Origin: Eledone cirrhosa
Lineage: Eukaryota
Reading direction: 5' to 3'
Assembly (NCBI GenBank): GCA_964016885.1
Contig: OZ024745.1
Coordinates: forward strand, 89,838,001-89,902,000
Length of the DNA: 64,000 nucleotides
The translations under genes were made by a program, and so were the position numbers. Below the pieces are notes generated by a model that saw nothing but the letters and a program-made list of their open reading frames with translations, had not been told where the DNA came from and ran no database searches. Shown piece by piece: positions 1-63,900 of this stretch (position 1 is its first letter; each line of letters opens with the position of its first letter).

Positions 1-86
1 TATGACAGTATTCCATAGTTGTGTGGTATATTAATAGATGACAGTATTCCATAGTTGTGTAGTATATTAATAGATGACAATATTCC

Positions 87-322
87 ATATTGTTATACTT
101 TGGGGGGGTCATGTTGCCAATAAGAAACACACGCACCAGTTGCTTTCACTTTAATTTATTATAAATTAAATTTATAAGTTTAATCTATAATAAATTAAAG
201 TGAAAGCAACTGGTGCTTGTGTTTCTTATTAGCAACATGAACCTCCCAAAGTATAACAATATCGGTTTCAACACACGTTTTAAGATAAAGAATCTTGCTC
301 AACAAATTCAGAAACGAAATAT
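87..322. mobile_element. Fold-back fragment of Penelope-like element 3' end inserted in satellite (copy 1)
   Basis: Inverted arms spanning 87-262 plus ~60-bp tail; matches 59745-59887 and 63765-63900; AATATTCCATA on both sides (79-89, 318-328), partly overlapping element ends. Confidence 0.9.
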
Positions 323-941
323 TCCATAGTTGTGTGGTATATTAATAGTTGACAGTATTCCCTAGTTGTGTGGTATATTAATAGATGACAGTATTCCATA
401 GTTGTGTGGTATATTAATAGATGACCGTATTCCATACTTCTGTGGTATATTAATAGATGGCAGAATTCTATATGTGTGTGGTATATTCATAGATGACAGT
501 ATTCCATACTTGTGTGGTATATTAATAGATGACAGTATTCCATAGTCGTGTGGTATATTAATAGATTACAGTATTCCATAGTTGTGTGGTATATTAATAG
601 ATGATAGTAATCCATAGATGTGTGGTATATTAATAGATGATAATGTTCCATAGTTGTATGGTATATTAATAGATAATTATATTCCATAGTTGTATGGTAT
701 ATTAATAGATAACTCTATTCCATAGTTGTGTGGTATATTAATAGTTTACAGTATTCCATATTTCTGTGGTATATTAAAAGATGGCAGTATTCCATAATTG
801 TATGGTATATTAATAGTTGACAATGTTCCATATTTGTGTGGTATATTAATAGATGACACTATTCCATAGCTGTGTGGTATATTAATAGATGACAGTATTC
901 CATAGTTGTGTGGTATATTAATAGATGACATCATTCCATAG

Positions 942-1130
942 AGGGCGGAGGATTGGCCGTATCGGCGGAGGTTCGGACGCCATGCTTTCCAGCATAGTTA
1001 CGTCCCTTTACGATCTGAGTTCAAATCCCGCCGAGGTTGACTTTGCCTTTCATCCTTAAGGGTTCGATAAATTAAAGTACCATTAATGCACTGGTTAATT
1101 GCTGGCCTTGTGCCTAACGTAGAAATAATT
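942..1130 (+). mobile_element. tRNA-derived SINE (octopus-type) inserted in satellite
   Basis: B-box-like GAGTTCAAATCCC followed by GCCGAGGTTGACTTTGCCTTTCATCC; 9-bp TSD ATTCCATAG (933-941, 1131-1139); related copies at 32.2, 46.5 and 53.8 kb. Confidence 0.88.
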
Positions 1131-1528
1131 ATTCCATAGTTGTGTGGTATATTAATAGATGACAGTATTCCATAGTTGTGTGGTATATTAATAGATGACA
1201 GTATTCCATAGTTGTGTGGTATATTAATAGATGACTGTATTCCATAGTTGTGTGGTATGTTAATAGATGAAATTATTACATATTTGTATGGTATATTAAT
1301 GGATGATAGTATTTCATAGTTCTATGGTATATTAATAGATGACTGTATTCCATAGTTGTATGGTATATTAATAGATAAGTGTATTCATAGTTGTGTGGTA
1401 TATTAATAGATGGCAGTATTCCATATTTGTGTGTTATATTAATAGATGGCAGTATTCCATAGTTGTGTGGTATATTATAGATTACAGTGTTCATAGTTGT
1501 GTGGTATATTAATAGATGACAATATTCC

Positions 1529-1765
1529 ATATTGTTATACTTTGGGAGGGTCATGTTACCAATAAAAATCACACGCACCAGTTGCTTACACTTTAAATTA
1601 TTATAAATTAAATTCATGAATTTAATTTGTAATAAATAAAAGTGAAAGCTTCTGGTGCGTGTGTTTCTTATTGGCAACATGACCCTGCCAAATTATAACA
1701 ATATCGGTTTCAACACACGTTTTCAGATAAAGAATCTTGCTCAACAAATTGTAGAAACGAAATAT
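1529..1765. mobile_element. Fold-back Penelope-end fragment in satellite (copy 2)
   Basis: Same structure and same junction sequences as 87-322. Confidence 0.9.
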
Positions 1766-13700: not shown

Positions 13701-16700
13701 GACAGTATTGCATAGTTGTGTGGTATATTAATATATGACAATATTCCATAGTTGTGTAGTATATTAATAGATGACATTATTCCATAGTTGTGTGGTATAT
13801 TAATAGATGGCAGTATTCCATAGTTGTGTGGTATATTGATAGATGACAGTATTCCATAGTTGTATTGTATATTAATAGATGTCCATGTTCCATAGTTGTA
13901 TGGTATATTAATAGATGACAGTATTCCAGAGTTGTATGGTATATTAATAGCTAACTCTATCCCATAGATGTGTGCTATATTTATAGATTACAATATACCA
14001 TAGTTTGTGTTATATATATAGATGACAGTATTCCATATTTGTATGGTATATTAATAGATGGCAGTATTCCATAATTGTGTGGTATATTAATAGATGACAG
14101 TATTCCATATTTGTATGGTATATTATTAGATGGCAGTATTCCATAGTTCTGTGGTATATTAATAGATGACAGTATACCATAGTTGTATGGTATATTAATA
14201 CATGACAGTATTCCATAGTTGTGTGGTATATTAATAGATGACACTATTCCATAGTTGTGTGGTATATTAATAGATGACAGTATTCCATAGTTGTATGGTA
14301 TATTAATAGATGGCAGTATTCCATATTTCTGTGGTATATTAAAAGATGACAGTATTCCATAGTTGTATGGTATATTAATACATGACTGTATTCCATAGTC
14401 GTGTGGTATATTAATAGATGACAGTATTCCAGAGTTGTATGGTATATTAATATATAAATGTATCCCATAGATGTGTGCTATATTCATAGATTATAATATA
14501 CCATAGTTTGTGTTATATTAATAGATGTCAGTATTCCATATTTGTATGGTATATTGATAGATGGCAGTATTCCATAATTGTGTGGTATATTAATAGATGA
14601 CAGTATTTCATGGTCGTGTGGTATATTAATAGATGACAGTATTCCATAGTTGTGTGGTATATTAATAGATGGCAGTATTCCATAGTTGTGTGGTATACTA
14701 ATAGATGACAGTATTCCATAGGTGTGTGGTATATTAATAGAGGACAGTATTCCATAGTTGTGTGGTATAATAATAGATGACAGTATTCCATAGTTTTCTG
14801 GTATGTTAATAGATGACAATGTTCCATAATTGTTTGATATATTAATAGATGACAGTATACCATAGTTGTATGGTATATTAATAGATGACACTATTCAATA
14901 GTTGTGTGGTTTCTTAATAGATGGCAGTAGTCCATAGTTGTTTGTTATATAAATAGATGGCAGTATTCCATAGTTGTGTGGTATATTAATAGATTACACT
15001 ATTCCATAGTTGTGTGGTATATTAATATAAATGGCAGTATTCCATATTTGTGTGGTATATAAATAGATGACAGTAGTCCATAGTTGTGTGGTATATTAAT
15101 AGATGACCGTATTCCATATTTGTGTGGTATATAAATAGATGACAGTATTCCATAGATGTGTGGTATATTAATAGATGATAGTATTCCATAGTTGTGTGGT
15201 ATGTTAATAGATGATAATAATCCATATTTATGTGGTATATAAATAGATGACAGTATTCCATAGTTGTGTGGTATATTAATAGATTACAGTATTGCATAGT
15301 TGTGTGGCATATTAACAGATGACAGTATACCATAGTTGTATGGTATATTAATAGATGACACTATTCCATAGTTGTGTGGTATGTTAATAGATGATAGTAA
15401 TCTATAGTTGTGTGGTATATTAATAGATGATAATATTCCATAGTTGTGTGGTATATTAATAGATGGCAGTATTCCATAGTTGTGTGGTATATTAATAGAT
15501 GGCAGTATTCAATAGTTGTGTGGTATATTAATAGATGGCAGTATTCCATAGTTGTGTGGTATATTAATAGATGGCAGTATTTCATAATTGTGTGGTATAT
15601 TAATAGATGACAGTATTCAATAGTTGTGTGGTATATTAATAGATGGCAGTATTCCATAGTTGTGTGGTATATTAATAGATGGCAGTATTCCATAGTTGTG
15701 TGGTATATTAATAGATGACAGTATTCAATAGTTGTGTGGTATATTAATAGATGGCAGTATTCCATAGTTGTGTGGTATATTAATAGATGACACTATTCCA
15801 TAGTTGTGTGGTATATTAATAGATTACAGTATTGCATAGTTGTGTGGTATATTAATAGATTACAGTATTGCATAGTTGTGTGGTATATTAACAGATGACA
15901 GTATACCATAGTTGTATGGTATATTAATAGATGACACTATTCCATAGTTGTGTGGTTTATTAATAGATGACAGTATACCATAGTTGCGTGGTATGTTAAT
16001 AGATGATAGTAATCTATAGTTGTGTGGTATATTAATAGATGATAGTATTCCATAGTTGTGTGGTATATTAATAGATGGCAGTATTCAATAGTTGTGTGGT
16101 ATATTAATAGATGGCAGTATTACATAGTTGTGTGGTATATTAATAGATGGCAGTATTTCATAGTTGTGTGGTATATTAATAGATGACAGTATTCAATAGT
16201 TGTGTGGTATATTAATAGATGGCAGTATTCCATAGTTGTGTGGTATATTAATAGATGGCAGTATTCCATAGTTGTGTGGTATATTAATAGATGACAGTAT
16301 TCAATAGTTGTGTGGTATATTAATAAATGGCAGTATTCCATAGTTGTGTGGTATATTAATAGATGACTGTATTCCATAGTTGTATTGTATATTAATAGAT
16401 GGCAGTATTCCATAAATGTGTGGTATATTATTAGATGGCAGTATTCCATAGTTGTGTGGTATATTAATAGATGGCTGTATTCCATAGTTGTGTGGTATAT
16501 TAATAGAAGACAGTATTCCATAGTTGTGTGGTATATTAATAGATGACAGTATTCCATACTTGTGTGGTATATTAATAGATGACAGTATTCCATACTTGTG
16601 TGGTATATTAATATTTGACAGTATTGCATAGTTGTGTGGTATATTAATAGATGACAATATTCCATAGTTGTGGGGTATATTAATAGTTGACAGTATTCCA

Positions 16701-18784
16701 TAGTTTGATGGTATATTAATAGATGACATTATTCCATAGTTGTGTGGTATATTAATAGATGGCAGTATTCCATAGTTGTGTGGTATATTGATAGATGACA
16801 GTATTCCATAGTTGTATTGTATATTAATAGATGTCCATGTTCCATAGTTGTATGGTATATTAATAGATGACAGTATTCCAGAGTTGTATGGTATATTAAT
16901 AGCTAACTGTATCCCATAGTTGTGTGCGATATTTATAGATTACAATATACCATAGTTTGTGTTATATTTATAGATGACAGTATTCCATATTTGTATGGTA
17001 TATTAATAGATGGCAGTATTCCATAGTTGTGTGGTATATTAATAGATGACACTATTCCATAGTTGTGTGGTATATTAATAGATGACAGTATTCCATAGAT
17101 GTATGGTATATTAATAGATGGCAGTATTCCATAGTTCTGTGGTATATTATTAGATGACAGTATTCCATAGTTGTATGGTATATTAATGCATGACAGTATT
17201 CCATAGTTGTGTGGTATATTAATAGGTGACAGTTTTCCATAGTTGTGTTGTATATTAATAGATGACAGTATTCCATACTTGTGTGGTATATTAATATTTG
17301 ACAGTATTCCAAAATCGTGTGCTATATTAATTGATTACAGTATTCCATAGTGGTGTGGTATATTAATAGATGATAGTATTCCATAGTTGTGTGGTATATT
17401 TATAGATGATAGTATTCCATAGTTGTATGGTATATTAATAGATGACTGTATTCCAAAGTTGTATGGTATATTAATAGATTACAGTATTCCATATTTGTGT
17501 GGTATATTAATAGATGGCAGTTTACCATAGTTGTATGGTATATTAATAGATGGCAGTATTCCATAGTTGTGTGGAATATTAATAGATGACGCTATTCCAT
17601 AGTTGTGTGGCATATTAATAGATGGCAGTATTCCATAGTTGTGTGGTATATTAATAGATGACACTACTCCATAGTTGTGTGTTATATTAATAGATGGCAG
17701 TATTCCATAGTTGTATGGTATATTAATAGATGACAGTATTCCATAGTTGTGTGGTATATTAATAGATGATAGTATTCCATAGTTGTATGGTATATTAATA
17801 GATGACATTATTCCATAGTTATGTTGTATATTAATAGATGACTGTATTCCATAGTTGTGGGTATATTAATAGATGACATTATTCCATAGTTGTGTGTATA
17901 TTAATAGATGATAGTATTCCCTAGTTTTATGGTATATTAATAGATGACTGTATTCAATAGACGTATTGTATATTAATAGATGGCAGTATTCCATAGTTGT
18001 GTGTTATATTAATAGATGACTGTATTCCATAGTTGTGTGGTATATTAATAGATGACAATATTCCATACATGTGTGGTATATTAATAGATGACAGTATTCC
18101 ATAGTTGTATGGTATATTAATAGATGACAGTATTCAATTTTTGTATGGTATATTAATAGATGACCGTATTCCATAGTTGTGTGGTATATTCATAGATGGC
18201 AGAATTCCATAGCTGTGTGGTATATTCATAGATGACAGTATTCCATACTTGTGTGGTATATTAATAGGTGACAATATTCCATAGACGTGTGGTATATTAA
18301 TAGAAGGCAGTATTCCATACTTGTGTGGTATATTAATATATGACATTATTCCATAGTTATGTAGTATATTGATAGATGACACTATTCCATAGTTGTATTG
18401 TATATTAATAGATGACATTATTCCATAGTTGTGTGGTATATTAAAAGGTGACAGTATTCCATAGTTTTGTGGTATATTAATAGGTGACAGTATTCCATAG
18501 TTATGTAGTATATTGATAGATGACACTATTCCATAGTTGTGTGGTATATTAATAGATGACAATATTCCATATTTGTGTGGTATATTAATAGGTGACAATG
18601 TTACATAGTTGTGTGGTATATTAATAGATGACAGTATTCCATATTTGTATTGTATATTAATAGATGACATTATTCCATAGTTGTGTGGTATATTAATAGA
18701 TTACAGTATTCCATAGTTGTGTGGTATATTAATAGATGACAGTATTCCATAGTTGTGTAGTATATAAATAGATGACAATATTCC

Positions 18785-19020
18785 ATATTGTTATACTTTG
18801 GGGGGGTCATGTTGCCAATAAGATACACACACACCAGTTGCTTTCACTTTAAATTATTATAAATTAAAATTATAAATTTAATTTATAATAAATTAAGGTG
18901 AAAGCAACTGGTGCTTGTGTTTCTTATTGGCAACATGACCCTCCCAAATTATAACAATATCTGTTTCAACACACGTTTTCAGATAAAGAATCTTGCTAAA
19001 TAAATTCAGAAACGAAATAT
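18785..19020. mobile_element. Fold-back Penelope-end fragment in satellite (copy 3)
   Basis: Same structure and same junction sequences as 87-322. Confidence 0.9.
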
Positions 19021-20639
19021 TCCATAGTTGTGTGGTATATTAATAGATGACAGTATTCCATAGTTGTGTGGTATATTAATAGATGACAGTAATCCAGAGG
19101 TGTGTGGTATATATTAATAGATGACAGTATTCCATAGTTGTGTGGTATATTAATAGGTGGCAGTATTCCATAGTTGTATGGTATATTAATAGTTGACAGT
19201 ATTCCATAGTTGTGTGGTATATTAATAGATGACAGTATTCCATATTTGTGTGGTATATTAATAGGTGGCAGTATTCCATATTTGTATGGTATATTAATAG
19301 TTGACATTATTCCATATTTGTGTGGTAAATTAATAGATGACAGTATTCCATAGTTGTGTGGTATATTAATAGATGACAGTATTCCATAGTTGTGTGGTAT
19401 ATTAATAGATGGCAGTATTCCATATTTGTGTGGTATATTAATAGATGACAGTATTCCATAATTGTGTGGTATATTAATAGATGGCAGTATTCCATAGTTG
19501 ATTGGTATATTAATAGTTGACCGTATTCCATAGTTGTGTGGTATATTAATAGTTGACCGTATTCCATAGTTGTGTGGTATATTAATAGTTGACCGTATTC
19601 CATAGTTGTGTGGTATATTAATAGTTGACCGTATTCCATAGTTGTGTAGTATATTAATAGATGCGAATATTCCATGTTTGAGAGACACATTTATTAAAAC
19701 CTTACTATGAAGCAATCATGTATTTATTACTTTAAGCATTAATACAAATTTTCATATTTTTATCACAGTCAATGTATGGAAGCAGAAATTAGAAGCAATA
19801 AATGTATAGGATATAAAATGAATAAATTTAGTTTTCAACAAAAATTTAAATGTACGTGAGAAAGAAAAACAAAGACAATTTCCCTATTGAACATCTTGTC
19901 GCGTTTTCCCCCAATTCTCAAGTGATAGAAACGTAAAGTATTTTTCTCTGTTTCTATTTAATTTAATTTGTGTTTCTTTGTATATTGTTTTTGCTTGTGT
20001 TTTTGTTTTTTATTTGTTTGTTTTTTTTACAAATAACTGTTAAATTTGCTAATGTAATGCTTAAAATATTTCTAAATTGCCTCATTCATTAATTCCTGTC
20101 TTCTAATACTTCTATTGGATATTTTTTTGTTTTTAATTTAAATATAATCCAGTGAAGTTTGCCATCATCATCGGATTAAAAATGGAATAATTTCATGTAG
20201 AAATTCCTTGTTACTATTGTTATTTTTAGTTTGATTTTTATTTGATTTGATTTATCCATATTTCGTTTTTCTTTCGTTTCGTTTCGTTTTATTTCTGTTT
20301 GTTGGTTTTAGACAAATCATTTCCGGGGAATTAGAATACTTCAACCACGACTGTTCAACATTAGTTTACTCTATTTCTTATTAGAAATGAATTTAAGATT
20401 CATTAATTATTACATTATGGTAAATTAGAGAATGATTAAGTAGTAGAAACTGTAATTTATTGAATGGAGTGCATTAAACTGTTTAATTTAATCTTTCTGA
20501 GTTCAAATCCTATTGCGGTCGAATTTGATTTATTGCTGTTGTTTAAGGTATAGGTCTAGCCCGACAGAGCAGACTCCTGATAAATAACGTTTTGTTATAC
20601 AACTAAGAGAAGAATACTCATGTTTCCATCATACATACA

Positions 20640-33597: not shown

Positions 33598-34222
33598 ATT
33601 AAAAATTTAAAATTAAAAATTAACTTACTTACTAAAGTTTTCACTCCAACTAATTAGTTTCTGTAATGGGATAAAGATAGTTACGCAATGTAACTGTCGA
33701 GAATTCATTACGTCATCAGGGAGTCTATTCTCAGCTAAGTCTCCAGGCAATGCGCGGACACTAGGGACTCATATAAAAATAATAATAATTCGGTGGATGG
33801 AACAGCTAGCGGGGACTGATTCCAAAGCACTGAAAAAGTTCACTGTCTCTGGTCAAATGGCAGATTCTAAAGAATCAATCACGTGACACTGGGGCTAGTC
33901 GGAAGGAGTGGGGTGGTAAAATGACAAAAGCCTACTACCACTACAATAAGTTAGTAGTGGATTTGGCAGGTTTGCTCAACAAATAAATAATTTGGAGATA
34001 AATATAGAGAATTAGTATATTTACCGACATATGCGTACAGATGTACACTAATGCTAGCAAATACATAAGTTATGTCATAGTACCTAGGTGGTTCAATGCA
34101 GGAGGATGCAGAACAATTATATGAAAGACGTAAAATAAGAAAATTTTAAAAATTAAAAATTAACTTACTTATGTATTTGCTAGCATTAGTGTACATCTGT
34201 ACGCATATATCGGTAAATATAC

Positions 34223-37740: not shown

Positions 37741-38428
37741 ATATTGTTTTAAATTAGTATATTTTCAACCTAGCTAACTTGGTCATTTGCAATTGGAACA
37801 CATGTATACTTATATCTGTGTTCATCCCTCTCATATATCCAATTATATTACACGGCTCGGAAAGATTCCCTTCTTTGAGCTATTTAATTGTAAAAGACTA
37901 TTTTGAGTTTATAACTCAATCTATGATATTCTCGCATCCATATGTAGAGTTAACCTTAGTCTCATAAACCCAGCTGCTATTTTTAGCGGCATGAGTATGA
38001 GATGCGCTAGGCGCTGCGACATGTGCGTTCATATCAGCATATCTGTCAGTCTTCTTAGATCCTTTGTAGTGAAAGATACGAATATTCCTGAATACACGCA
38101 GATGAGCACAGGAATTCTGGCTTTCACTTAATAATTCTTGCGAAACAGATTTTGGTTTGTCCGGGTATCAAAGGCTATTGCCCGATATAGGTTTGTTAAT
38201 TTTATTGATTTATTACTTTAAATCGAGTCAGGCAAACCATATTGTTTTAAATTAGTATTTTTTCAACCTAGCTAACTTGGTCCTTTGTAATTGGAACACA
38301 TGTATACTTATATCTGTGTTCATCCCTCTCATATATCCGATTATATTACACGGCTCGGAAAGATTACCTTCTTTGAGCTATTTAATTGTACAAAACTATT
38401 TTGAGTTTATAACTCAAACTATGATATA
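37741..38428 (+). repeat. Partial tandem repeat (498-bp period) with a CAGAUGA HHR-like motif at 38094-38156
   Basis: 37741-37925 repeated at 38239-38424; homologous to 41560-42345. Confidence 0.75.
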
Positions 38429-38432
38429 TTTG

Positions 38433-38503
<71 letters not shown>

Positions 38504-38550
38504 TTATTAAAATAACAGATTAAAGTTTAAGCATATATATATATATATAT

Positions 38551-39552
38551 TTATTAAAATAACCGATTAAAGTTTAAGCAAAGAATCGCTGCTTTCACCC
38601 TTAACGGGATCTTCTGAAACTAAAAAAGTCAATCTGTGAACGCAGAAGTAAATATTTCAAAAAACGTTGAAACCGGAGGAAGACAGGAAGACGATACTTT
38701 AGTTCGTGAAAACGTTCCCTGGCAAAGAACGAAAAAAAAACGAAGATAATACGTCATTATTTGGAGCGGTGAAAACAATTACACGCAAAGACAAAACCAC
38801 GTTTATGGTATAAATGAAGTCGTAGACTAATATTCTATTAGGTGGTTCATGGAGACGTTCTCTGGCAATGAACGGAAAAACGGAGATATACGTCATTAAG
38901 TGGACCGCAGAGAACAATTGCACGCAAAGACAAAACCGCGTTAATGGTATAACTGAAGTGGTAAAGTAAAATTCTAACTAGGAAACCGAATGATTCTCGG
39001 CTTCAGAGTTAAGAATAAAGTAAATAAAATACAGAGGTAATTGAAATTAAATAAATACACGCATCCATATACGTACATACACAAGCATACGCGAAAACAC
39101 TCGCCATAGGTTTACAAATACAAGCACGTACACAAAAAAACCCGCTCGCCCATGAGAGAACGTCTCCATGAACCACCTAATAGAATATTAGTCTACGACT
39201 TCGTTTATACTCTAAACGTGGTTTTGTCTTTGCATGTAATTGTTTTCACCGCTCCAAATAATGACGTATTATCTTCGTTTTTTCCGTTCTTTTCCAGGGA
39301 ACGTTTCCACGAACCAAAGTATCGTCTTCCTGTCTTCCTCCGGTTGCAACGTTTTTTGAAATATTTACTTCTGCATTCACAGCTTCACTTTTTTAGTTTC
39401 AGAAGATCCCGTTAAGGGTGAAAGCAGCGATACTTTGGTTAAACTTTAATCTGTTATTTTAATAAATATTTGCTCTACGGTTCTTATATATTTGATATAT
39501 ATTTATCCTTATCGAGCCTTCTTTGGATTTTAGTCTTCAAATGTATTATTAT

Positions 39553-39556
<4 letters not shown>
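38551..39556. repeat. Fold-back element, ~315-bp arms (38551-38866 and 39152-39468) plus right-hand tail; variant HHR in each arm
   Basis: Arms are reverse complements; (TA)n flanks. Confidence 0.85.
38571..38621 (-). ncRNA. Variant hammerhead fold (CAGAAGA core, CUU triplet); second copy at 39395-39445 (+)
   Basis: AGTTT-CAGAAGA-T-CCC/GGG-T-GAAA-GCA/TGC-TT-AAACT. Confidence 0.65.
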
Positions 39557-39602
<46 letters not shown>

Positions 39603-39606
<4 letters not shown>

Positions 39607-40530
39607 GGAAAAGAACGAAAGGAAATTTCATTTCTCACTCTTAGTACGGTTGATACTTAAATGTAAGTATGTATGTATACGTAGATACATATATGTATAC
39701 AGACGTACAGTAGTATGTATATATATACATACATGCACACGTATATATATATGTACGTATAGGTTTACCGAACATTTATTATAATGTTTGGTTTGTTTGT
39801 TTATAAACAAACAAACAGCCTGACTTACGCCGTACAGTGTGGAGGCAACCATCGTCACCTTTGTGTTCAACACTGACACAGGAACGATGTACTAGTTTCA
39901 AGCTTATTAGCTATCGTCAGCATCGTATACCTTCCTGCCAGATGATTGAACGTCTGAAAGTATATACTTTCCTTATTCATATTAACGGCTGAGCAGCCTA
40001 ATTTGCATATCTAGTGAGTTAGTCGGCCGGGCGCACCGAAAACGATAAATGGAAAAGAATGAAACGAAATTTCATTTCTCACTCTTAGTACGGTTGATAA
40101 TTAAATGCAAGTATGTATGTATACGTACATACATATATGTATACAGACGTAGAGTAGTATGTATACATACATGCACACATATATATGTACGTATAGGTTT
40201 ACCGAACATTTATTATAATGTTCGGTTTGTTTGTTTGTAAACAAACAAACATCCTGAATTACGCCGTACAGTGTGCAGGCAACCATCGTCACCTTTGTGT
40301 TCAATACTGACACAGGAACACTGACACTGAACACAAAGGTGACGATGGCTGCCTGAACACTGTACGGCGTAGTTCGGGCTGTTTGTTTGTTTACAAACAA
40401 ACAAACTGAACATTATAATAAATGTTCCATAAACTTATAGGTATATATATATATATGTGTGCATGTATGTATATATATACATACTACTTTACGTCTGTAT
40501 ACATATATGTATGTACGTATACATACATAT
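39603..40530. repeat. 443-bp-period tandem repeat followed by an inverted arm; contains an HHR
   Basis: 39603-39885 repeated at 40046-40320; 40322-40530 inverts 40115-40312. Confidence 0.85.
39884..39926 (-). ncRNA. Minimal type I hammerhead ribozyme, GUA triplet
   Basis: ACGATG-CTGACGA-T-AGCT/AGCT-T-GAAA-CTAG-TA-CATCGT; palindromic stem III ACTAGT. Confidence 0.85.
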
Positions 40531-40577
<47 letters not shown>

Positions 40578-40970
40578 AAATTGAGATAAGCGGAGCAAGC
40601 AAGATTCAAACATTTATTTAAAATAAATTAAAAAATATAATTTAAATATTTACCTATTCCAATTGCTTTTACCGACGGTTTCACTTCACAATAGATTGGA
40701 GATACCTAGGGACCTCCAATGGAAAAGTTTAGATCATCAGAGGGCATTTTCCTTTCCTAGGGCAAAAAGTCCCAGGAACGGCAAAATATATTGCCATCTG
40801 CCAGCTAGCATTGGATCGAATGGGCCGAATATATTGTGCCGTTCTACTATGGGCTGGTTCATGCGTAGGTCAAATTTCCGTCCCCATTTGATCCTGTGCT
40901 AGCTGGCAGATGGCAATATCTTTTGCCGTTCCTGGGCCTTTTTGCTGTAGGAAAGGAAAATACTCTCTGA

Positions 40971-40974
<4 letters not shown>
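40578..40974. repeat. Fold-back element (arms 40732-40809 and 40897-40974) with left-hand extension containing an HHR
   Basis: Arms are reverse complements; extra inner pairing GGATCGAATGGG/CCCATTTGATCC. Confidence 0.8.
40664..40746 (-). ncRNA. Type I hammerhead ribozyme (degenerate stems), GUA triplet
   Basis: CTGATGA, long stem II with ATTGGAG/CTCCAAT, GAAA-CCGTCGG-TA; stem I imperfect. Confidence 0.65.
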
Positions 40975-41008
<34 letters not shown>

Positions 41009-41259
41009 CAATTTTCCTTGCTTATAACTTTTCTGCCTTTTTTAGTTTGTGGTTTCTTTAGCTTGTGATTTTTTTGCTTGTGCTTTTTATTTATACCTAT
41101 TACACTTCCAACCAGTGGTGCCTGTAATTGTGTTCTTTCAAGCAGAACATCTTTTTAACTCCTCACTCTCCACATGATGCATTTGACACTAATAACAATT
41201 ATGTACCCTAAATATTCTAAATGACTGGGATTTTAGTTACCTGTTTCGACATTCCTTAT

Positions 41260-41304
41260 GCTCCGATGATTCCAGACGTCCCTCTGAAAGAAACAATTGT
41301 CAGC
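41260..41304 (+). ncRNA. Minimal type I hammerhead with one core change (CCGAUGA), GUC triplet
   Basis: GCT-CCGATGA-TTCCAGA/TCTGAAA-GAAA-CAATTG-TC-AGC, followed by AATAAA. Confidence 0.7.
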
Positions 41305-41502
41305 TAATAAATGTTCTAAACTAAAATGTTAACACTTTGTATCTCGGCTCTGTAAAACACTTGAAAATTTGCATTGAGCCTTTTGTCATACCGGTAACCG
41401 GCTAGTACTTAATACAACCCTACATATTTATAGTTATATCAAAGATATATAAATATAAATATTACTATATATATATATATATATATATATTGTATATGCA
41501 TG

Positions 41503-41559
<57 letters not shown>

Positions 41560-41560
<1 letters not shown>

Positions 41561-42340
41561 AATTAATATAAATTAATATATGATAAACACTAATACAATT
41601 ATATAAGTGTTTGTATTGCAAATGACCAAGTTAGCTAGATTGAAAAATACTAATTAAATTAATACAGTTTGCCTATCTCGATTTAAAATAATAAATCAAT
41701 AAAAGCAAACCCATATTGGCAATAGCCGTGATACCTGGACAAATTTAAATTTCAAACCCAAACCTGTTCCGCAGACAAATTTAAATTTCAAAACCCAAAT
41801 TCGTTTCGCAACGATAAGTGAAAAAAGTTAAAAATTCTATTTCTGTGCTCTTCTGCGGGTATCCAGAAAATTGGTATGTTTCACCTCAAAATACTTAGGA
41901 GGACTGATAAGCAAGTGTTTAACGCACATGGTTTTTCAGCGCCTAGCTAGTCCTATACTTGTGCTGCTAGAAATAACAGCCGTTTTTATGGGACTAAAAT
42001 TTAGCTCAACAATATTATATTAATACTATATATAGAGTTATAAACTCAAACAGTCTTTTACAATTAAATAGCTCAAAGAAAGAGGTGTTTCTGAGCCGTG
42101 AAATTGGCTATTGCCAATATGGGTTTGTTTTTATTGATTTATTATTTTAAATCGAGACAGGCAAACTGTATTAATTTAATTAGTATTTTTCAATCTAGCT
42201 AACTTGGTCATTTGCAATACAAACACTTATATAATTGTATTAGTATTCATCATATATTAATTTATATTAATTTGTATTTCACGGCTCAGAAATACCTCTT
42301 TCTTTGAGCTATTTAATTGTAAAAGACTCTTTGAGTTTAT

Positions 42341-42345
<5 letters not shown>
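41560..42345. repeat. Fold-back copy of the ~500-bp family; CAGAAGA HHR-like motif at 41793-41860 (-)
   Basis: 41560-41727 inverted at 42106-42275; 42036-42102 inverted at 42277-42345. Confidence 0.8.
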
Positions 42346-42411
<66 letters not shown>

Positions 42412-42428
42412 TATATATATATATATAT

Positions 42429-43895
42429 ATATTGTTATACTTGGGGAGAGTCATATTTGTGTAATAATATTGCCAGAATTAATAACAGAACACACTCACT
42501 GTGTGGTTGGTTTTCGCTTCTGTGTCTTTTATATCGGTTAATTTAATTTATTCGGTCCTCAATGTTACCATTGACTGACCAACGGTCAAAAATACAGATA
42601 CAATATAGACACAAACACATATATATAGTCTATCAAAGTTCTTTCGTTGCACATCTGCAACATCATCAGTGGTTCTATTATGTTTCCTCCCGTTGCATTG
42701 TATGCTTACGCCATCTTTATTTAGTCTGTTTATTTATTTATTTACTTGTTTATTTTTTGTCTTCTCTGCGCATGCGTTTGCGTGTGTATATAGTGTTTTG
42801 TTTGATGTGTGTTTTTGTTTGGGTGACTGTGTATTGGTTAACGTATTCTATCTTAGTTTACTAGTGTGTGTTTATATGTGTTTGTGTATGTATTTATTTA
42901 TTTATTTATTTATACTTCTCTTAGGTCAGTGTTGTTTGTTTGGGTGTTGTTGTTATTCCATTCTTTTTTTCTGTTTAGCCTTGGCCTTCTAAGTTCTATT
43001 TCGCTGGCCTCTCTGATTTGCCTATCTGCTGGGTCATTTCTATGTTTGGATATTATTCTAATTTCTATGTTGTCTATGTTACCGTTGTGTTATTGTCTAG
43101 CATGTACTTATAGTACTGAACCGTGTTTTCGTCCTTTTAGTTCCCCCCAGTGTTGGTCTATCGTTTCACCTATGCTACGAGCTGTCTCGCCTATGTATGT
43201 TGTTGTCATGTCTCTGCAAGTACCCTCTGTACATCTTATGCTATAGACTACGTTTCTAGTTTTACAGTTTATCCGGTTGTTTACTCTACATATAATACAT
43301 TTCCTATTAGTACAGTGGGGTTTTTAAAAGGGTAGGTTTTGCTGATCAGGGATTTTATGGTGGTTCGTGGCTTTTCTACCACCTTAATCTTTAAGTGGAT
43401 CTTTCTCAGGGCCTTTTTACACTGGTTAGCTAATTTCCCTCCAGGGGTAGCGTCCACAACATGACACTCTGGTATCTCTGGTTGTCGTACCATAAGGTGG
43501 CTTTCCCTATCTTATGTCTAGTCCTATCTAAGCTATCCATGATTTGCTCCTGTATAATGGGCAAAATCCTTTCATGTCCTGTTCTATGATGGTCTTATAC
43601 TTCTCCGTGGCTCCTTCGTATACTCTGATTCTGTCTCTTTGGTTGTAGTCAGAGAACTGCATGCGGTTGATGAAGTGTTGGATGTGTCTTTCCATTTCTG
43701 TTGGGTCGTACATGCGGGACACGTTCTTCATCACTCGTCCCAAGTCTGCGATCAGAATATTAAACTTAGCACTACTGGACATTGCTGAGTTTTTGAGTAT
43801 CAGGTATTTGGAGGCCATGGGTTTAGCATAGTGTGAGTGGAGAATTTGGGCTCTCTCGTCGACACACGATTTCATATCAAAAACCTCGCCAAACT
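42429..43895 (-). mobile_element. 5'-truncated Neptune-like Penelope element, family 2 (RT thumb, GIY-YIG remnant, pLTR with HHR at 42632-42673)
   Basis: QILHSHYAKPM..HFINRMQFS homologous to the 61285-63075 ORF; terminus CCAAGTATAACAATAT shared with family 1; inverted tail at 43860-43895. Confidence 0.88.
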
Positions 43896-43962: not shown

Positions 43963-44027
43963 TATTTCATTATACATATTTCAAGGACACCAAGTTAAAT
44001 TATGGTGTGCTTTCATCAGATAAAATA
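43963..44027 (-). ncRNA. Type I hammerhead ribozyme in Nematis-like pLTR
   Basis: TATTTTAT-CTGATGA-AAGCACACC/GGTGTCCTT-GAAA-TATGTA-TA-ATGAAATA. Confidence 0.8.
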
Positions 44028-46466
44028 TAATATAGAGCAGTTTTATAAATAAATATTGACATACCCTTAAAGAATGCAACCATTTCTGTTGGATGCTCCC
44101 GGATAGTGGGGTTATAAATTTATTTATACTATTATCCAAATTAGTGTCGGATATTTTAAAATCACAGTAGATTTAAATAAGCCGTTTGGTTATGGAGAAA
44201 GAGAAAGAGAAAAAAGAGAAAAAGAGCAAACTCTAAGAGGAAAATAAGAAAAATAAGAAAAGGAGGAAGAGAAGAAAAAAGAAAAGAGAAAAGAGAAAAG
44301 AGAAAGAGAAAGAGAAAGCTGTAAGTGATAGGTTGTTGTATTAGCTTAACTTTTGAGATGAAGTGAAAGAATAACTATTTAATGGATGAGTAAAGAAGAG
44401 TAAATAAGCGTGAATGGAAAATACATAAATAATAGGAGAATTTTAACCATTGTTTAAATATGATTAAATGTTTAATTTATCACTTAGATTATTGAGATCT
44501 ATACATTAAAAATTGAGATGTATATATTATTAAAAAATCTATATATTATTAAGACTATATATTATTAAAAAATCTATATATTATTAAAAGAATATATTCA
44601 TATATATATATACATACGCACACACAGATATATATACATATAAATATATATATATATACACCTACACATACATACATATACATACATACAATAAAGGACT
44701 TTTTTATTTAAGATATAGGAATTTTCATAAACTTATAGATTTTTCGGAGAAAATCGTAGAAAAAACGGAGAAAATCATTTCTATGTAATAGCGAAACAGC
44801 GTGAAGTAAATTAAGTTATTTACTTATATTAAATGTTACAAATGTTAAGATAGTAAAGGAAATTTTAGGTTATACAAACCTTATGTTATTATACAAGCCT
44901 TATATTATTTAATAAATTTTTTATAAGTTTTATATCTAATAAATCCACCTGTTATGTAGTTGTGACTGTTATTATATAAGTTTGTTTATCACGAACCTTA
45001 AGAAAATACTTATAAACGAGTGCATTCGAATTGTATGCATATATATATACACACAATCCCCGCATAGATACACATAGACGTACTTACACATACAGGTAGA
45101 TATGCATCACATATATATATATATACATACATACACACACATATATACATATATATATATACACACACATATTTATAGAGAGAGAGATATAAAAATACAG
45201 TACATAGTATAATTGAAGTACATAATATATACAATATATAATGTAAAATAAAATAAAATAAAATAAAATAAAATAAAATAAAAAATAAAAAATAAAATGA
45301 ATTATATTACGATTTGGAAATATAATTATAAGCAATATAACTTTAAATCAATATAATTTTTTAAAAATATTATAGAATATTTAAAGATATGATTTTAAAA
45401 TACAATAGGTTTAAGAGATTCAGTATAAAAATTTAAATTTTTCATATAATATTTAGTTCTCAGTATGTTTAACTTAATTTTATAGCCATAAGAAAAAGAA
45501 AGAGAAACTTTCAAAAATAGGAGAAACTTTCAAATAAAGTATTTTCCCCTTTTAAGAGCTTTCAGTATGTTTCTCTATAAGAATTTTTTTTTTTTATTTA
45601 GGAAAACACTTTTTTTAACTTGAGAGTTTAAGCAGTCAAATGAAGGAATCTAATGATTTATCGATCGATATGTTCAATATATTAATAGAATTAATTAATT
45701 ATATATTACATTTTAAATTTATATTTAAATGTTGAGTTCAATCTATGTCTGCAGCAACTGAAAAAATTGCTCTTTAGGTTCAGGGAATTTTTGGTCTTTA
45801 ATATAAAGAATATTTCCTCTATACAAAGATCACAATTTTCTGAAGAGGAGTTAAAAGGAGTAGCTCTTGAAATAATATTCCAAAGCAACAAATATTTAAC
45901 GTTCTTTAATTTGAGGTCCCATAATAAGCTAGATAGAGAAGTTGAAGATTTTTTGTTTAAATGTGTAAAAGAGTTTTTATGGTTATTGAAACGAGATTTA
46001 AAATCTGTGGAAGTAGATCCTACACAATTAAATGAATTTAAATTAGATTTTACATTACAATTATATACTATATTTTTAGCTAAGTTATTCAACGGACAGT
46101 TAGATTTATTTCTACAGTTACATTTATCAAATTGGATATTGCTGGGATTATTAGTGGTATTTTGGTTAGGTTTTAAATTTCTATTATTAATTCTATTAAT
46201 ATTCTGCGCTAAATTTTTGGTGGATGAATAAGTTAATTTTATAGTATCTCTATTAAAAATTGAGTAATATCTATGTGTTCTAGGGAAGCATTTGTCAAGA
46301 GCTTTAAAGAATAGTTTAGCAATAGGAGTTTTAATATTTAATGAGAAAGGAGGAGCGAACAATAATATATTCCTAGTTCTATTTCTTTCTTTGTTTTCCG
46401 AATTATTGTAAGGTTTTCTATTATAGTTGTTAAAATTTAACTTGGTGTCCTTGAAATATGTATAAT

Positions 46467-46540
46467 TGTTTCTACTATTGGCACAAGGCCAGAAAATTAC
46501 CCAGTACATTACTGGTACTTTATTTTATCGACCCCGTAAG
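46467..46540 (-). mobile_element. 5'-truncated SINE with 14-bp TSD
   Basis: GAAATATGTATAAT at 46453-46466 and 46541-46554. Confidence 0.8.
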
Positions 46541-55013: not shown

Positions 55014-55292
55014 CATTATCCAGGAAGCTCCAACCGTTAAGGTTGTCTTTTTTCTGGGTATGTCAATATTTATTTATAAAACAAATCTGTATTTTATCTG
55101 ATGAAAGCGCACGTTAATTTGCCTTGGTTGCCCTTGAAATATATATAAGAAAATAAATATGATTTTATAAATATAGTTTCCAGTTATTAATATATTGTGT
55201 ATTTACTCCACTAATGTGTTGAGTGCTTTATATCAGTTATAAAAATGTTTAAGCTTGTTGAATCCCAACAAATTAAATATAGCCTCTGCATA

Positions 55293-55382: not shown

Positions 55383-55712
55383 CTCGTATATATATACATA
55401 TATATACATATATACACACATATATATGTATATATACATTATCCAGGAAGCTCCAACCGTTAAGGTTGTCTTTTTTCCGGGTATGTCAATATTTATTTAT
55501 AAAACAAATCTGTATTTTATCTGATGAAAGCGCACGTTAATTTGCCTTGGTTGCCCTTGAAATATATATAAGAAAATAAATATTGTTTTATAAATATAGT
55601 TTCCATTTATTATTATATTGTGTATTTACTCCACTAAGCTGTTGAGTGCTTTATATCAGTTATAAAAAGGTTTAAGCTTGTTGAATCCCAACAAATTAAA
55701 TATAACCTCTGC
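55014..55712 (+). mobile_element. Tandem 423-nt HHR units (HHRs at 55090-55155 and 55513-55578); retrozyme-like or pLTR tandem of the Nematis-like family
   Basis: Two near-identical units; TATTTTAT-CTGATGA...GAAA-TATATA-TA-AGAAAATA; homologous to 43920-44030 and 46541-46687. Confidence 0.82.
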
Positions 55713-57408: not shown

Positions 57409-58017
57409 CGTTTCTGAATTTGTTTAGCAAGATACTTTATCTGAAATCGTGTGTTGAAACCGATATTGTTATACTTTGGGAGGGTCATGTTGCCAATAAG
57501 AAACACACGCACCAGTTGCTTTCACTTCAATTTATTATATATTTATAAATTTATAAATTTACAAATCTACAAACTTATAAATTTCTGGTTGGTTGGTTGG
57601 TTCCACAACCAAATAGTTGTTTATATATAGTCATAGTCCTTTCGTCACACACTCTGTGACCTCTTCAGTGACTGGGGATTCCTTTCTTTGTTTCTGTGCC
57701 TTTCCTTTCTTCTATCCTACGCCATTTTGTTTCACACACAGAAACAAAATGGCGTAGGATAGAAGAAAGGAAAGGCACAGAAACAAAGAAAGGAATCCCC
57801 AGTCACTGAAGAGGTCACAGAGTGTGTGACGAAAGGACTATGACTATATATAAACAACTATCTGGTTGTGGAACCAGCCAACCAACCAGAAATTTATAAG
57901 TTTGTAGATTTGTAAATTTATAAATTTATAAATATATAATAAATTGAAGTGAAAGCAACTGGTGCGTGTGTTTCTTATTGGCAACATGACCCCCCCCCCC
58001 CCCAAAGTATAACAATA
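57403..58017. mobile_element. Fold-back of Neptune-like pLTR: ~270-bp arms with HHRs at 57629-57673 (-) and 57801-57845 (+)
   Basis: Centre TTTC-ACACACA-GAAA near 57737; matches 63585-63900; (TA)n flanks. Confidence 0.9.
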
Positions 58018-59214: not shown

Positions 59215-62200
59215 CAGACCTTCAAGATAGTAAAGAATCATCTGTACTCTACCAACATGCTAAAATAGAACATACGAGTAAATTAGAGAACATAGAAATA
59301 AAAATAGAATCTACACACAGAAAAGACGCAATGTTTAGACAAATCACAGAGGCAATAAACATAAAAGAATTACAACCAAAATTAAATAGAAAACATGAGT
59401 GGAACAGCAACATCACAACTTACAATTAAGGACAAAATGAAAACACACACGCACATAGAACAAACAACCAACCTGTAACATGTAAATAAACAAATAAATA
59501 AACGAATATAAACACACACAGACACCCGGATGTGGCGCATGCGCAGACTGAGCACACAACACACACACAGAAACAAGATGACGTAGGACAGAACAAAGGA
59601 GAGGCACCAAAACAAAGAAAAGAATCCTCAGTCACTGAAGAGGTCACAGAATGTGTGACGAAAGAACTTTGACAATATATAAACAACCATCTGGTTATGG
59701 AACCAACCAGCCAACCGGAAATTTGTAAATTCCTAAATTTATAAATTTATTATAATAAATTGAAGTGAAAGCAACTGGTGCGTGTGTTTCTTATTGGCAA
59801 CATGACCCTCCCAAAGTATAACAATATCGGTTTCAACACACGTTTTCAGATAAAGAATCTTGCTAAACAAATTCAGAAACGAAATATCGTAAGCCTTAGC
59901 CAGGCTAACAAGATACTGAAAATCACCATGTTCTGTTGTCTTCGAAAAACAATAACATCTCGACCACTACACTTCATAAAAGAATGTGCCTCGTCCCGAG
60001 TTTACACCAACACCATCAACACCGATGTAAAAAGATTACAACTCACCAAAAAGCAAGCAGATAGGCTAAAACGAACACTAATTCTAAACATAAAAAAGAA
60101 GATCTATAGAGAATTAAGTCATCAATAAAACATAAGCGTAACCTAATACAAGAAATAACTAAGATCACCACACCAAGAGAAAAACTAATATTTATAAGTC
60201 TTATACGTCCTGAAGAACAGTACATTGTTCAAGAATGTGATAAGCACTTTAACAAGAAACTAAAGTGGCTTAAACAGATAAAACTAAATCAAGATATTTA
60301 GAGAATACCAATAGATATCCCGACAAAATTGACGGTATAAATATGGCCGACATCTCATTAACTGATGAGTTCAACAACAACAACACAAATATATACGGCA
60401 ACACAATGGTCGACTCTGATGAATTATCTGTATTACAACTGCCACCTAAGTATGCGACATTCAAGAAGGTAAATATGATTAGTTGTTTGTCAGAAATAGA
60501 AAAATCATTTACAAAATTACGTTGGAGCCTCAAAAACAAAAACAAAAACAAAAGTAACAACATACGCACACACATATACAACACACATCCCAACAACAAC
60601 AGACACACAGACACAAACAACAATAACAACAACACACACATCAACAATAATAACATACTCAGAAACAACAACAACAGACACGCAGACACAAACAACAATA
60701 ACAACACACACAACAATAATAACACACACGGAGACAACAACAACAACACACATCAACAACAGCACACATCAACAACAACAACACACACACATTCAATGCC
60801 TGTCACCACCACCACAATCTTAAACACACAGACACAGAAAACAGGTAAGGGCAGTAGCACAGAAATAAGGGAAGGTAATAGGATTGAAAGGAGAAGGGAG
60901 ACTATGGACAGAGAAAATAATCAAGACGAACACACAGACACACAAGATAGAGTAGATAATAACAATGAGCCAGAGGAAAGAGACAGGAGTAATAATGAGA
61001 GACATAGAAACAACCATGAGGCTGTTGGTGGAAATAGAAATAGAAACAACACAACTATCAATAACAATAGCACTAGTACATATAAAACAGCAGCCTGGAA
61101 CTCTACTTTTTATAATCCCTCCGATAAGTCGTTCGACCTGCGACGAGTCCACGCCACGACTTTACCATTTAACAAACGCACGCAATTGCCGTCGCAGATC
61201 GATGAACAAACAGAAGCACAATTTAGTATAGCTTGATCTAAACTTAGAAATATTATAGAACAGTATAGCAAGAAGCATAATAGAATGGAGGCCCAGCAAC
61301 TGGGAGAAAAATCTGCAAATGGCTTGCGTAAGCTCATGCAGCGCTCGCGTAATGGAGAGATAGCATGCTTTCCAACAGACAAGTCTGGCAGAATGTCGGT
61401 TGACAGTCTGCCAAACTACATCCAGGCAATGCAACCCCACATCACTAACACAAGAGAAGTAACACCACAAGAGCATGAGGATAGAGAAGAAGCCCTCAAT
61501 GCCCATATGGTGATGTGGACAAATATAATGCAGCCCAACAAAAGGACTGCCAACAACTTCCAGGCCTGGAACAATGACGTGCCAGCGTTGTATGGGCTTC
61601 GAAAAGACCATAAAACGGGCAGTGACCCTGTCACGGGACCGCCAACACGGCCAGTCTGTGGAGCTAACATTGCTAGTAACTACAGACTGTCCTACTTCTT
61701 CTCCCTTATCATACGCCCCATCATTGAAATGTCCCCAGATGTATATGACAGCACGGAGGACCTCCTCAGCAGAATCGGCGAGAGTAACCGATCTAGGGAC
61801 CTAACAAACTGCATAATAGGTAGTATGGATGTTGTGGCCCTGTATCCATCTATTGACGTGGATTTTGCTGTGGATAAATGCGTAGAAATGATCAGTGAGA
61901 GCAATGTTGAGTTCCGTGGGATTGATACCTATAGTAATAATTACCTAGACACATATGACCTTAGCAACCTGTGCCCTACAAGACCAGCAAGAGGCAGACC
62001 ACCTACCATTACCTCAATGGCCAAGAAAACCCACACAGATAGATGGAACGGGTGGACCAGAGCCATACGGACACCCGAAAACCACGATGAACTAAAGAAA
62101 ATGATTGCACATGCGGTGGGGGCCAGCATAAAATTAACCCTTAAGGAACATATGTTCAAATTTAATGGAAAAACATATGCCCAAGAGGAAGGAGCAGCCA

Positions 62201-63897
62201 TTGGTGTTAGCATTTCAGGCGCGATAGCCCACTTATTCATGGTATGGTGGGACAGTAGACTTAAACTTAAACCTAAAGAACAATTAGAAGACCACTTAAC
62301 CCTGATAATGTACTCCCGCTACGTTGATGATATAAACATCATAGTTAAAACGCCCCCACTAGAGAACAGTCAGGAATTAGAGAAAAACACAATGGAAAGC
62401 ATCCAGCAAATAGCTAACTCCATCCACCAGAGTATTAGAGTTACTATAGACTACCCAAGTAAACACCCCAACCATCGATTACCTGTACTAGACACGGAGC
62501 TCTGGTTAGATACCATTAATAACAAAAAACAAATCCTCCATTCCCATTATGCCAAACCCATGACTTCCAAATATCTGATCCACCGAAACTCAGCTGTTTC
62601 GGACCATACCAAAATCAACATACTGATTGCGGATTCGGTACGGGTGATGAGAAACGTGTCCCGCATGTGCAACCCCGAAGAACTAGAGAGACACATACAA
62701 CACTTCATCCACCGTATGCAGTTCTCTGGTTACAATCAGAGAGATAAAATCAGAGTGTATAGAGGAGCCAGAACCAAATGGGAAAAAATGGTAAATAATG
62801 ACACAAATGGGACCTGCCCCTTGTATAGGAGCAAATTTTGGAATAGAATAGAAAGAACTAGGAATAAGGCTAATAGAATAAACTCATGGTATGATAGCAA
62901 TAAATGCCAGAGTGTAATGTTCATCGATACAACCCCTAGAGGTGAATTAGCTTACAAATTTAGAAGGGCCCTAGATAAACATAAACTCAATATTAAGATA
63001 GTTGAAGGACCAGGTGCCTCCGTACAAACACTTATTAGCAAGATATACCCTTTTCAAAGACCCCTGTATAGATAAGAAATATATAACCTGTAAATTAAGT
63101 CTCCATATTAACTGTAAAACTAGAAATGTAGTATATAGCATAAGATGTACTGAAGGACAATGTAGAGACAAAAATATAGTGTACATAGGTGAGACAGCTC
63201 GTAGATTAGGGGAACAGATAAAGGAACACTGGCGAGACCTTGAAGATAGTAAAGAATCATCTGTACTCTACTAACATGCTAAAATAGAACATAAGGGTAA
63301 ATTAGAGAACATAGAAATAAAAATAGAATCTACACACAGAAAATACGCAATGTTTAGACAAATAACAGAGGCAATAAACATAAAAGAATTACAACCAACA
63401 TTAAATAGAAAACATGAGTGGAACAGCAACATCACAACTTACAATTAAGGACAAAATGAAAACACACACGCACATAGCACAAACAACCAACCTGTAACAT
63501 GTAAATAAACAAATAAATAAACGAATATAAACACACACAGACACCCGGATGTGGCGCATGCGCAGACTGAGCACACAACACACACACAGAAACAAGATGG
63601 CGTAGGACAGAAGAAAGGAGAGGCACAAAAACCAAGAAAATAATCCCCAGTCACTGAAGAGGTCACAGAATGTGTGACGAAAGAACTTTGACAATATATA
63701 AACAACCATATGGTTGTGGAACCAACCAACCAACCGGAAATTTGTAAATTCCTAAATTTATAAATTTATTATAATAAATTGCAGTGAAACAACTGGTGCG
63801 TGTGTTTCTTATTGGCAACATGACCCTCCCAAAGTATAACAATATTGGTTTCAACACACGTTTTCAGATAAAGAATCTTGCTAAACAAATTCAGAAA

Positions 63898-63900
<3 letters not shown>
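59215..63900 (+). mobile_element. Near full-length Neptune-like Penelope element in partial-tandem form; direct repeats 59215-59882 and 63236-63900; HHRs at 59631-59673 and 63650-63692
   Basis: Direct repeats flank an RT plus GIY-YIG ORF; ends in (TA)n. Confidence 0.93.
59928..63448 (+). pseudogene. Disrupted PLE polyprotein: (AAC)n-rich N-terminus, RT, Cys linker, GIY-YIG endonuclease; start approximate
   Basis: PTDKSG, LYGLRKDHK, PTRPV, SMDVVALYPSI, GAAIG, RYVDDI, LPVLD, NVVY..C..C..VYIGETAR; stop at 61234-61236 and frameshifts. Confidence 0.9.

Follow-up and report, generated by a model that had tools for sequence, protein, structure and literature searches.

Two unrelated repeat families of Eledone cirrhosa with predicted hammerhead motifs carrying adenine at core position 4

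Two repeat families in a 64,000-nucleotide stretch of the Eledone cirrhosa genome (contig OZ024745.1, positions 89,838,001 to 89,902,000; below called the window) carry predicted type I hammerhead ribozymes with adenine at core position 4 (A4), where the consensus has uridine. In the U-turn of the core, N3 of U4 contacts a phosphate. A4 is the majority state in both families, here named A and B. Judged from sequence, we lean toward considering both motifs attenuated but working hammerheads of Penelope-mobilised repeats. A first-pass annotation had described two departures from consensus common to the families, A4 and a uridine at position 17 (U17, giving an NUU triplet), and had taken them to mark a subclass rather than decay. 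The families share one departure, not two, and U17 plays no special part.

A4 motifs in two unrelated families

CAGAAGA cores were found at 38616-38610 (minus strand), 39400-39406 (plus) and 41855-41849 (minus), and a CAGATGA core at 38099-38105 (plus), each with a 3-bp stem II and then GAAA, in all four places where the first-pass annotation had located them. A descriptor left free at position 4, which was composed after the motifs had been seen, was run over 19.7-64 kb with U4 matches as positive controls. It returned nine U4 and three A4 motifs and none with C4 or G4, the expectation per shuffle in 200 block-wise dinucleotide shuffles being 0.025 for U4, 0.015 for A4, 0.01 for C4 and 0.015 for G4. 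Copy A2 was missed by this descriptor owing to a private mismatch.

The type I order of the consensus in PMC3088659 (stem I, core, stem II, GAAA, stem III, UH, stem I) was found in A1, B1 and B2, with the helices given in Table 1. All four copies have C3, G5, A6, G8, A9, G12, A13, A14 and the A15.1-U16.1 pair, which are also the read majority where reads cover them. Position 17, which may be A, C or U, is U in family A and C in family B. At 10.1-11.1, family B has a G-C pair and family A a U.U mismatch in place of the consensus pair. Position 4 is A in all four copies and in both family majorities, so the motifs are classed as a variant and not as members of the consensus.

The two families had been called unrelated, and BLAST indeed found no similarity between them. 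A CTGANGA consensus in either family had been named as the sign that the changes were private mutations; the majority letter at position 4 is A in both. As the majority letter of two families that lack BLAST similarity, A4 is not private decay. What stands of the proposed subclass is this A4 majority in two unrelated families, and what falls is the coupling of A4 to U17. U17 is not a departure from consensus, as H17 denotes A, C or U (PMC3088659, PMC12192606). It is present in 24 of the 56 published Penelope hammerhead representatives (Fig. S3, PMC4209133) and, within the window, beside a canonical U4 core at 33643, 42630, 59630 and 63649, the sister copies at 57629 and 57801 having A17. A check of co-occurrence showed no coupling, since U17 is common with U4 and family B has C17 in its GUC triplet.

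There is no tRNA in the window, and therefore no tRNA-derived short interspersed nuclear element (SINE) head. Families A and B were also searched for a scrambled-order hammerhead built on another CUGANGA, without a match.

Structure of the motifs and their repeats

For family B, the first-pass annotation had read an NUU triplet and a weak stem III. In that register the A15.1-U16.1 pair is followed by C.A at 15.2-16.2, leaving stem III at 1/2, and the fold costs 22.0 kcal/mol in B1 and 24.2 in B2, against 8.5 and 6.0 with a GUC triplet; the NUU register was rejected. The better GUC lies 10 nt further downstream in B1 and past a 50-bp duplication in B2, and with it stem III is complete (6/6 and 8/8). 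Because the GUC register is far cheaper and gives a longer stem III, family B is canonical except for A4. The duplication (41740-41800, minus strand) stretches stem III of B2 to about 30 bp with the fold intact, and one contig joint suggests another family B copy that has it. RNAalifold, applied to B1 and to B2 trimmed short of its GUC, returned a rival helix alone and no covariation.

The A1 fold at 38571-38621 (minus strand) agrees with its first description in stem I (5/5), stem III (4/4) and the CUU triplet. Two features of family A had gone unnoticed: positions 10.1 and 11.1 form a U.U mismatch, and helix I has an outer part of 9 bp. With the majority letters, helices Ia (5/5), Ib (9/9) and III (4/4) are complete, the outer and inner helix being separated by a bulge of 7 nt. 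Folding as a hammerhead then costs 4.1 kcal/mol; three canonical neighbours, folded in other window lengths, cost 5.3-7.6. A2 had been presented as a second full fold. Its CAGAAGA core is as described, and its stem III is not, having TGG instead of TGC (a G.G mismatch), with a G that is private to A2 (C in 96% of reads). Four changes private to this copy (39383, 39386, 39432 and 39438) leave its helices Ib and III weaker.

A1 and A2 are 96% identical by column and belong to a head-to-head inverted pair. The family A reads have two common 3' ends, 39469, which is 29 nt past the predicted cut, and 39542. Neither the partial copy at 38503-38532 nor copy B3 begins at the predicted cut.

Variation of the motifs in reads

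Reads of family A, from four of 23 runs with three organism labels, were placed on 39130-39545, and the differences considered are the best-supported 40 of 154, the smallest shares among them being about 11%. In a restriction-site-associated DNA (RAD) run, 19,156 of 12.5 million reads fit the family A stretch, with a depth over the motif of 5,500-7,100. Rough scaling gives a copy number of thousands or more, RAD sampling being biased. At this depth none of the best-supported differences falls at position 4 (39401) or 17 (39440), and a small U4 minority could be hidden below a share of about 11%. Two of them fall within 39395-39445; at both, A2 alone departs from the letter of 97% and 96% of reads.

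Counted over these listed differences, polymorphic positions make up 0/55 of helix and core, 2/7 of the bulge, 0/14 of the loop, 10/83 of the upstream and 1/88 of the downstream positions. Helix and core differ from the bulge (Fisher 0.011) and from the upstream part (Fisher 0.006), a pattern that fits structural selection and also a uniform 3' end. In one contig, which has another organism label, CAGAAGA is kept beside a changed loop II and a single mismatch in stem II.

The reads also show joints. Seven of the nine opposite-strand joints listed for family A, with a further 68 joints outside the listing, have their start between 39395 and 39406, which is the motif's 5' side, and two joints coincide with helix edges (39400 to 39441 and 39379 to 39456). 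Beyond 39396, on the 3' side, read depth is about 1.7-fold higher. The joints may be fold-back during copying or library chimeras.

Reads of family B were placed on 41775-41915, with all 38 differences at a share of at least 4% considered; position 17 and the 3' side of stem I lie outside this stretch, so that for these the letters are those of B1 and B2. By contig depth, position 4 is A in 90%, C in 7% and U in 3%, G being unlisted (below 4%). No variant at or above 4% was found at G5, A6, G8 or G12-A15.1, or in stem II except at G10.1. Identity between B1 and B2 is 73% over the whole and 65% locally; they have 17 of 35 loop II columns in common, and both retain all ten essential core positions, A4, C17 and stem II. 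For the retention of these and 15.2-16.2, the block-aware P is 0.007 over the whole unit and 0.0003 locally; for the ten core positions alone it is 0.05 and 0.013. If A4 is ancestral to B1 and B2, the core was held while carrying it. At 2.2-1.2, B1 has C-G and B2 has C.A; a U at 2.2, able to pair with that A, is present at 40% of contig depth.

Are the A4 motifs working ribozymes?

In the reading we lean toward, A4 would have arisen from U4 separately in each family. Loss of the CUGA U-turn would be offset in part by peripheral contacts and by the length of helix I, which is 14 bp in family A, where it contains a bulge, and 8 bp in family B. The predicted cut follows CUU in family A and GUC in family B. 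Slow self-cutting may trim the repeat transcripts, which a Penelope-type reverse transcriptase likely copies into (TA)n sites, so that the A and B repeats would be non-autonomous passengers of Penelope-like elements. The presence of Penelope-like open reading frames (ORFs) and ten canonical hammerheads in the same window favours this reading. Because the hammerheads of PMC4209133 already have low in vitro activity, weak cutting may suffice. Cleavage in trans by minority U4 copies was set aside, as it would not keep the core of the A4 copies intact.

Several results weigh against it. The uniformity of family A is not specific to the motif, the 88 downstream bases being as uniform (1/88), and A1 and A2 are probably one insertion event. 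In two RAD runs U4 makes up 45% and 57% of all family B reads, a share that drops to 9% only once a heavily decayed locus is left out, one whose reads (66 and 93) have a single start and 13-15 other differences. The retention of the ten core positions alone, with its P of 0.05 under the whole-unit null, has a P of 0.18 within X1. UU at 15.3-15.4, in 80% of X1/contig depth, would leave stem III with two U.U mismatches if its partners, which sit at the edge of the read stretch, do not covary. None of A1, A2 and B1 has the hammerhead as its minimum-energy fold, and no linked ORF was found in family A or B. No Rfam hammerhead model (clan CL00010) matches in the window at gathering score, a test that is insensitive here, as a canonical neighbour reaches 17.6 bits (E 0.043) against a cut-off of 52 and the whole-window scan detected none of the ten canonical U4 hammerheads. 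A CRISPR-DR24 likeness in Rfam (E 1.8) was rejected as chance.

Viral contigs add to the points on this side. With a CCC/GGG stem II, full hammerheads were 97 of 119 distinct matches for U4 and 8 of 109 for C4, compared with 0 of 72 for A4 and 1 of 78, a doubtful one, for G4. With a GNCC/GGNC stem II they were 123 of 134 for U4 and 0 of 22 for A4, the U4 counts being samples of about 430 (CCC/GGG) and 2,100 (GNCC/GGNC) stretches. A4 seems to be purged where cutting matters. A third A4 pattern, with the stem II of family B, gave weak passes in 5 of 72 distinct matches under a looser filter and with no U4 control, and its largest match group lies inside an ORF. U10.1.U11.1 was present in 4 of the 97 viral U4 motifs. 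Well-formed viral hammerheads with a C4 core and a GUC or GUA triplet were also seen (L218, L232, L277, L305, L319 and L329). A pattern scan of metagenomes gave three GC-rich matches, none similar to the window.

No natural A4 hammerhead family was found in the literature by title; figures, alignments and Luense et al. 2017, which is said to deal with Penelope hammerhead variants, may list U4A. String searches of the available supplements of PMC3088659, PMC4209133 and PMC8557442 found none either, and the scope also took in available parts of PMC10085705, PMC7229834, PMC13725137, PMC11300833 and bioRxiv 10.64898/2026.07.22.740005. Against activity, all single and double mutants of the CUGA turn, made in a type III ribozyme, are reported to have low activity and no rescue, except for a C3-G8 swap (PMC9901934). 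In favour of activity, active natural core variants are described in PMC3088659, including U4C and U10.1.U11.1, the latter being the best tolerated mismatch.

The alternative that survives best, unlikely in our judgement and still a serious one, is that U4A inactivated the ribozyme in a master of each family and that amplification went on regardless, cutting being dispensable for a passenger. The low activity of the CUGA mutants (PMC9901934) and the absence of A4 from clear viral hammerheads point that way, as do the U.U at 10.1-11.1 and the CUU triplet that family A adds. One or a few masters could account for a copy number in the thousands, Naiad elements have spread with no canonical hammerhead according to PMC8557442, and decayed family B copies exist. 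Such a relic does not readily explain why B1 and B2 retained the whole core with A4 despite 35% local divergence, or why the listed polymorphisms of family A spare the helices and sit in the bulge. The same transversion in two unrelated families is also hard to reconcile with it when G4, a transition from A, stays below 4% in family B.

It is improbable that the fold was retained only as a structure, for instance as a handle for the Penelope reverse transcriptase or as a stabiliser, with cutting no longer needed. Retained helices, a family A 3' end that is uniform past the motif and the clustering of seven of the nine listed opposite-strand joints at 39395-39406 would suit such a role. The joints may be library chimeras, however, and in family B the unpaired G5, A6, G8 and G12-A14, none of which a scaffold needs, are as fixed as the helices.

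Two further proposals give A4 a regulatory part. That a working A4 subclass arose twice in one animal lineage and is host-gated, a rival helix holding the core until a host factor (possibly adenosine-to-inosine (A-to-I) editing, in a cephalopod-like animal) releases it and so gates the processing of retroelement RNA, is a long shot. A conditional ribozyme, in which A4 holds the core in the rival helix and the host switches it on via a protein or by A-to-I editing of A4, is very doubtful. A4 does lie in a rival helix (CUUCUG/CAGAAG in A1; CGCAG/UUGCG, kept in B1 and B2), the neighbouring Penelope-like reverse transcriptase has its best named match in Octopus vulgaris (68%), and cephalopods carry out heavy A-to-I editing. 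Position 4 is, however, still paired as U (0.81-0.90), it is paired at 0.90 in a canonical neighbour, and A versus U alters the fold cost by at most 1 kcal/mol. Inosine resembles G, and G4 gave a single doubtful case among 78 viral matches and is below 4% in family B.

A chance likeness to the hammerhead in AT-rich repeats, to which the lack of an Rfam hammerhead match and minimum-energy folds of A1 and B1 no better than shuffles could point, is scarcely credible beside three A4 matches against 0.015 per shuffle, the complete three-helix geometry in both families and a canonical neighbour that itself scores far under the Rfam gathering score (E 0.043).

U4 has been taken as invariant in hammerhead searches and mutagenesis, C being the one natural alternative reported in the available sources. 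If the A4 motifs cut, peripheral structure can make up for a damaged U-turn to a greater extent than has been assumed, and whole high-copy families escape descriptors in which CUGA is required. If they do not, a family of thousands of copies shows Penelope passengers spreading without cleavage, which would bear on the purpose of Penelope hammerheads. Family B provides a clean test because it has a single departure from consensus and natural A, C and U alleles.

Neighbouring elements

The window is AT-rich repeat DNA with a satellite, microsatellites, RTE-like reverse transcriptase frames and Penelope-like elements (Table 1). The satellite, with a 36-bp unit, occupies 1-19700, with about 470 copies in one array, strong strand skew and short inverted repeats interrupting it. 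In a protein search, the Penelope-like reverse transcriptase at 61237-63075 had its best named match in Octopus vulgaris, with 68% identity, and a copy related to the element at 59400-63900 lies at 42500-43890 (minus strand). A GIY-YIG-like frame with Cys/His motifs at 45706-46524 (minus strand) adjoins pieces of the 43966 hammerhead repeat and has no Pfam match. The ten canonical U4 hammerheads represent about five families beyond A and B. An element with the canonical 39885 hammerhead is present in direct and inverted partial copies at 39601-40529 and 40730-40977, and among these features is a separate inverted repeat with CTGATGA at both outer ends.

Table 1. Predicted hammerheads, their repeats and other elements of the window (fractions, paired positions per helix)
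Feature	Position	Strand	Details
Family A copy A1, extended type I hammerhead	38562..38637	-	Ia 5/5 (38621-38617 with 38575-38571); outer Ib 8/9 (38637-38629 with 38570-38562); U-rich bulge between; II 3/4; III 4/4; C3=38616, A4=38615; U.U plus CCC/GGG stem II, GAAA, stem III, CUU; predicted cut 38576/38575
Family A copy A2, same motif as A1	39379..39454	+	C3=39400, A4=39401; predicted cut 39440/39441
Family B copy B1, type I hammerhead	38091..38169	+	I 6/8 (38091-38098 with 38162-38169); II 3/3; III 6/6; C3=38099, A4=38100; G10.1-C11.1; GAAA 38142-38145; stem III to U16.1=38160, GUC; predicted cut between 38161 and 38162
Family B copy B2, type I hammerhead	41730..41863	-	I 7/8 (41863-41856 with 41737-41730); II 3/3; III 8/8 counted; z -3.2; C3=41855, A4=41854; GAAA 41807-41804; long stem III across 50-bp duplication to U16.1=41739, GUC; predicted cut 41738/41737
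Family A element copy 1	38551..39154	-	unique upstream part, about two 139-bp internal repeats, hammerhead, short tail to (TA)n
Family A element copy 2	39155..39542	+	inverted partner, head-to-head with copy 1
Family A partial third tail copy	38503..38532	-	in 47-bp tandem with (TA)n; starts a few bases upstream of predicted cut
Family B partial tandem	37741..38427	+	unit about 498 bp, about 1.4 units, ends at (TA)n
Family B copy 2 and partner	41556..42346		41556-42104 (-), inverted partial partner 42106-42346 (+); between simple repeats
Penelope-like element	59400-63900	+	two terminal repeats, reverse transcriptase frame, GIY-YIG-like frame with stops and frameshifts
Canonical U4 hammerhead	33643-33724	-	
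Canonical U4 hammerhead	39885-39925	-	
Canonical U4 hammerhead	42630-42675	-	
Canonical U4 hammerhead	43966-44024	-	
Canonical U4 hammerhead	55093-55152	+	
Canonical U4 hammerhead	55516-55575	+	
Canonical U4 hammerhead	57629-57673	-	
Canonical U4 hammerhead	57801-57845	+	
Canonical U4 hammerhead	59630-59674	+	
Canonical U4 hammerhead	63649-63693	+	

Comparison with known systems

Families A and B show no similarity to the Penelope-like elements of the window, and their anatomy fits that of Penelope elements and retrozymes, with partial tandems, an inverted truncated partner, a short tail and microsatellite sites. These features, with (TA)n as the microsatellite, match the Penelope anatomy set out in PMC8557442. 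The hammerheads of Penelope-like elements (Cervera and de la Pena 2014, PMC4209133) resemble those of A and B in their type I order, their place near the end of a Penelope-type repeat, their inverted pairs and the common U17, and one core variant (U3-A8) is known among them. All 56 rows given there have U4, but the descriptor required it. Most of these hammerheads are without helix III and act as dimers, whereas A and B have a full helix III and a long helix I. Low in vitro activity is reported there for the metazoan Penelope hammerheads.

The metazoan non-LTR (long terminal repeat) retrozymes (PMC7229834; bioRxiv 10.64898/2026.07.22.740005) are likewise non-coding repeats with a type I hammerhead, described as derived from or mobilised by Penelope-like elements, and family B resembles them in its partial tandem. 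Their reported circles of about 170-400 nt differ from the family B unit of about 498 bp. Further differences are that family A is not tandem at the hammerhead, that A and B have an A4 core and that they are known here from DNA alone.

In the study of natural core variants by Perreault et al. 2011 (PMC3088659), core mutants in repeats were rejected. The natural U10.1.U11.1 reported there is a precedent for the U.U mismatch of family A, and the natural U4C is a parallel to A4 in that it too is a change at position 4, one reported to be weak in vitro and sufficient in vivo.

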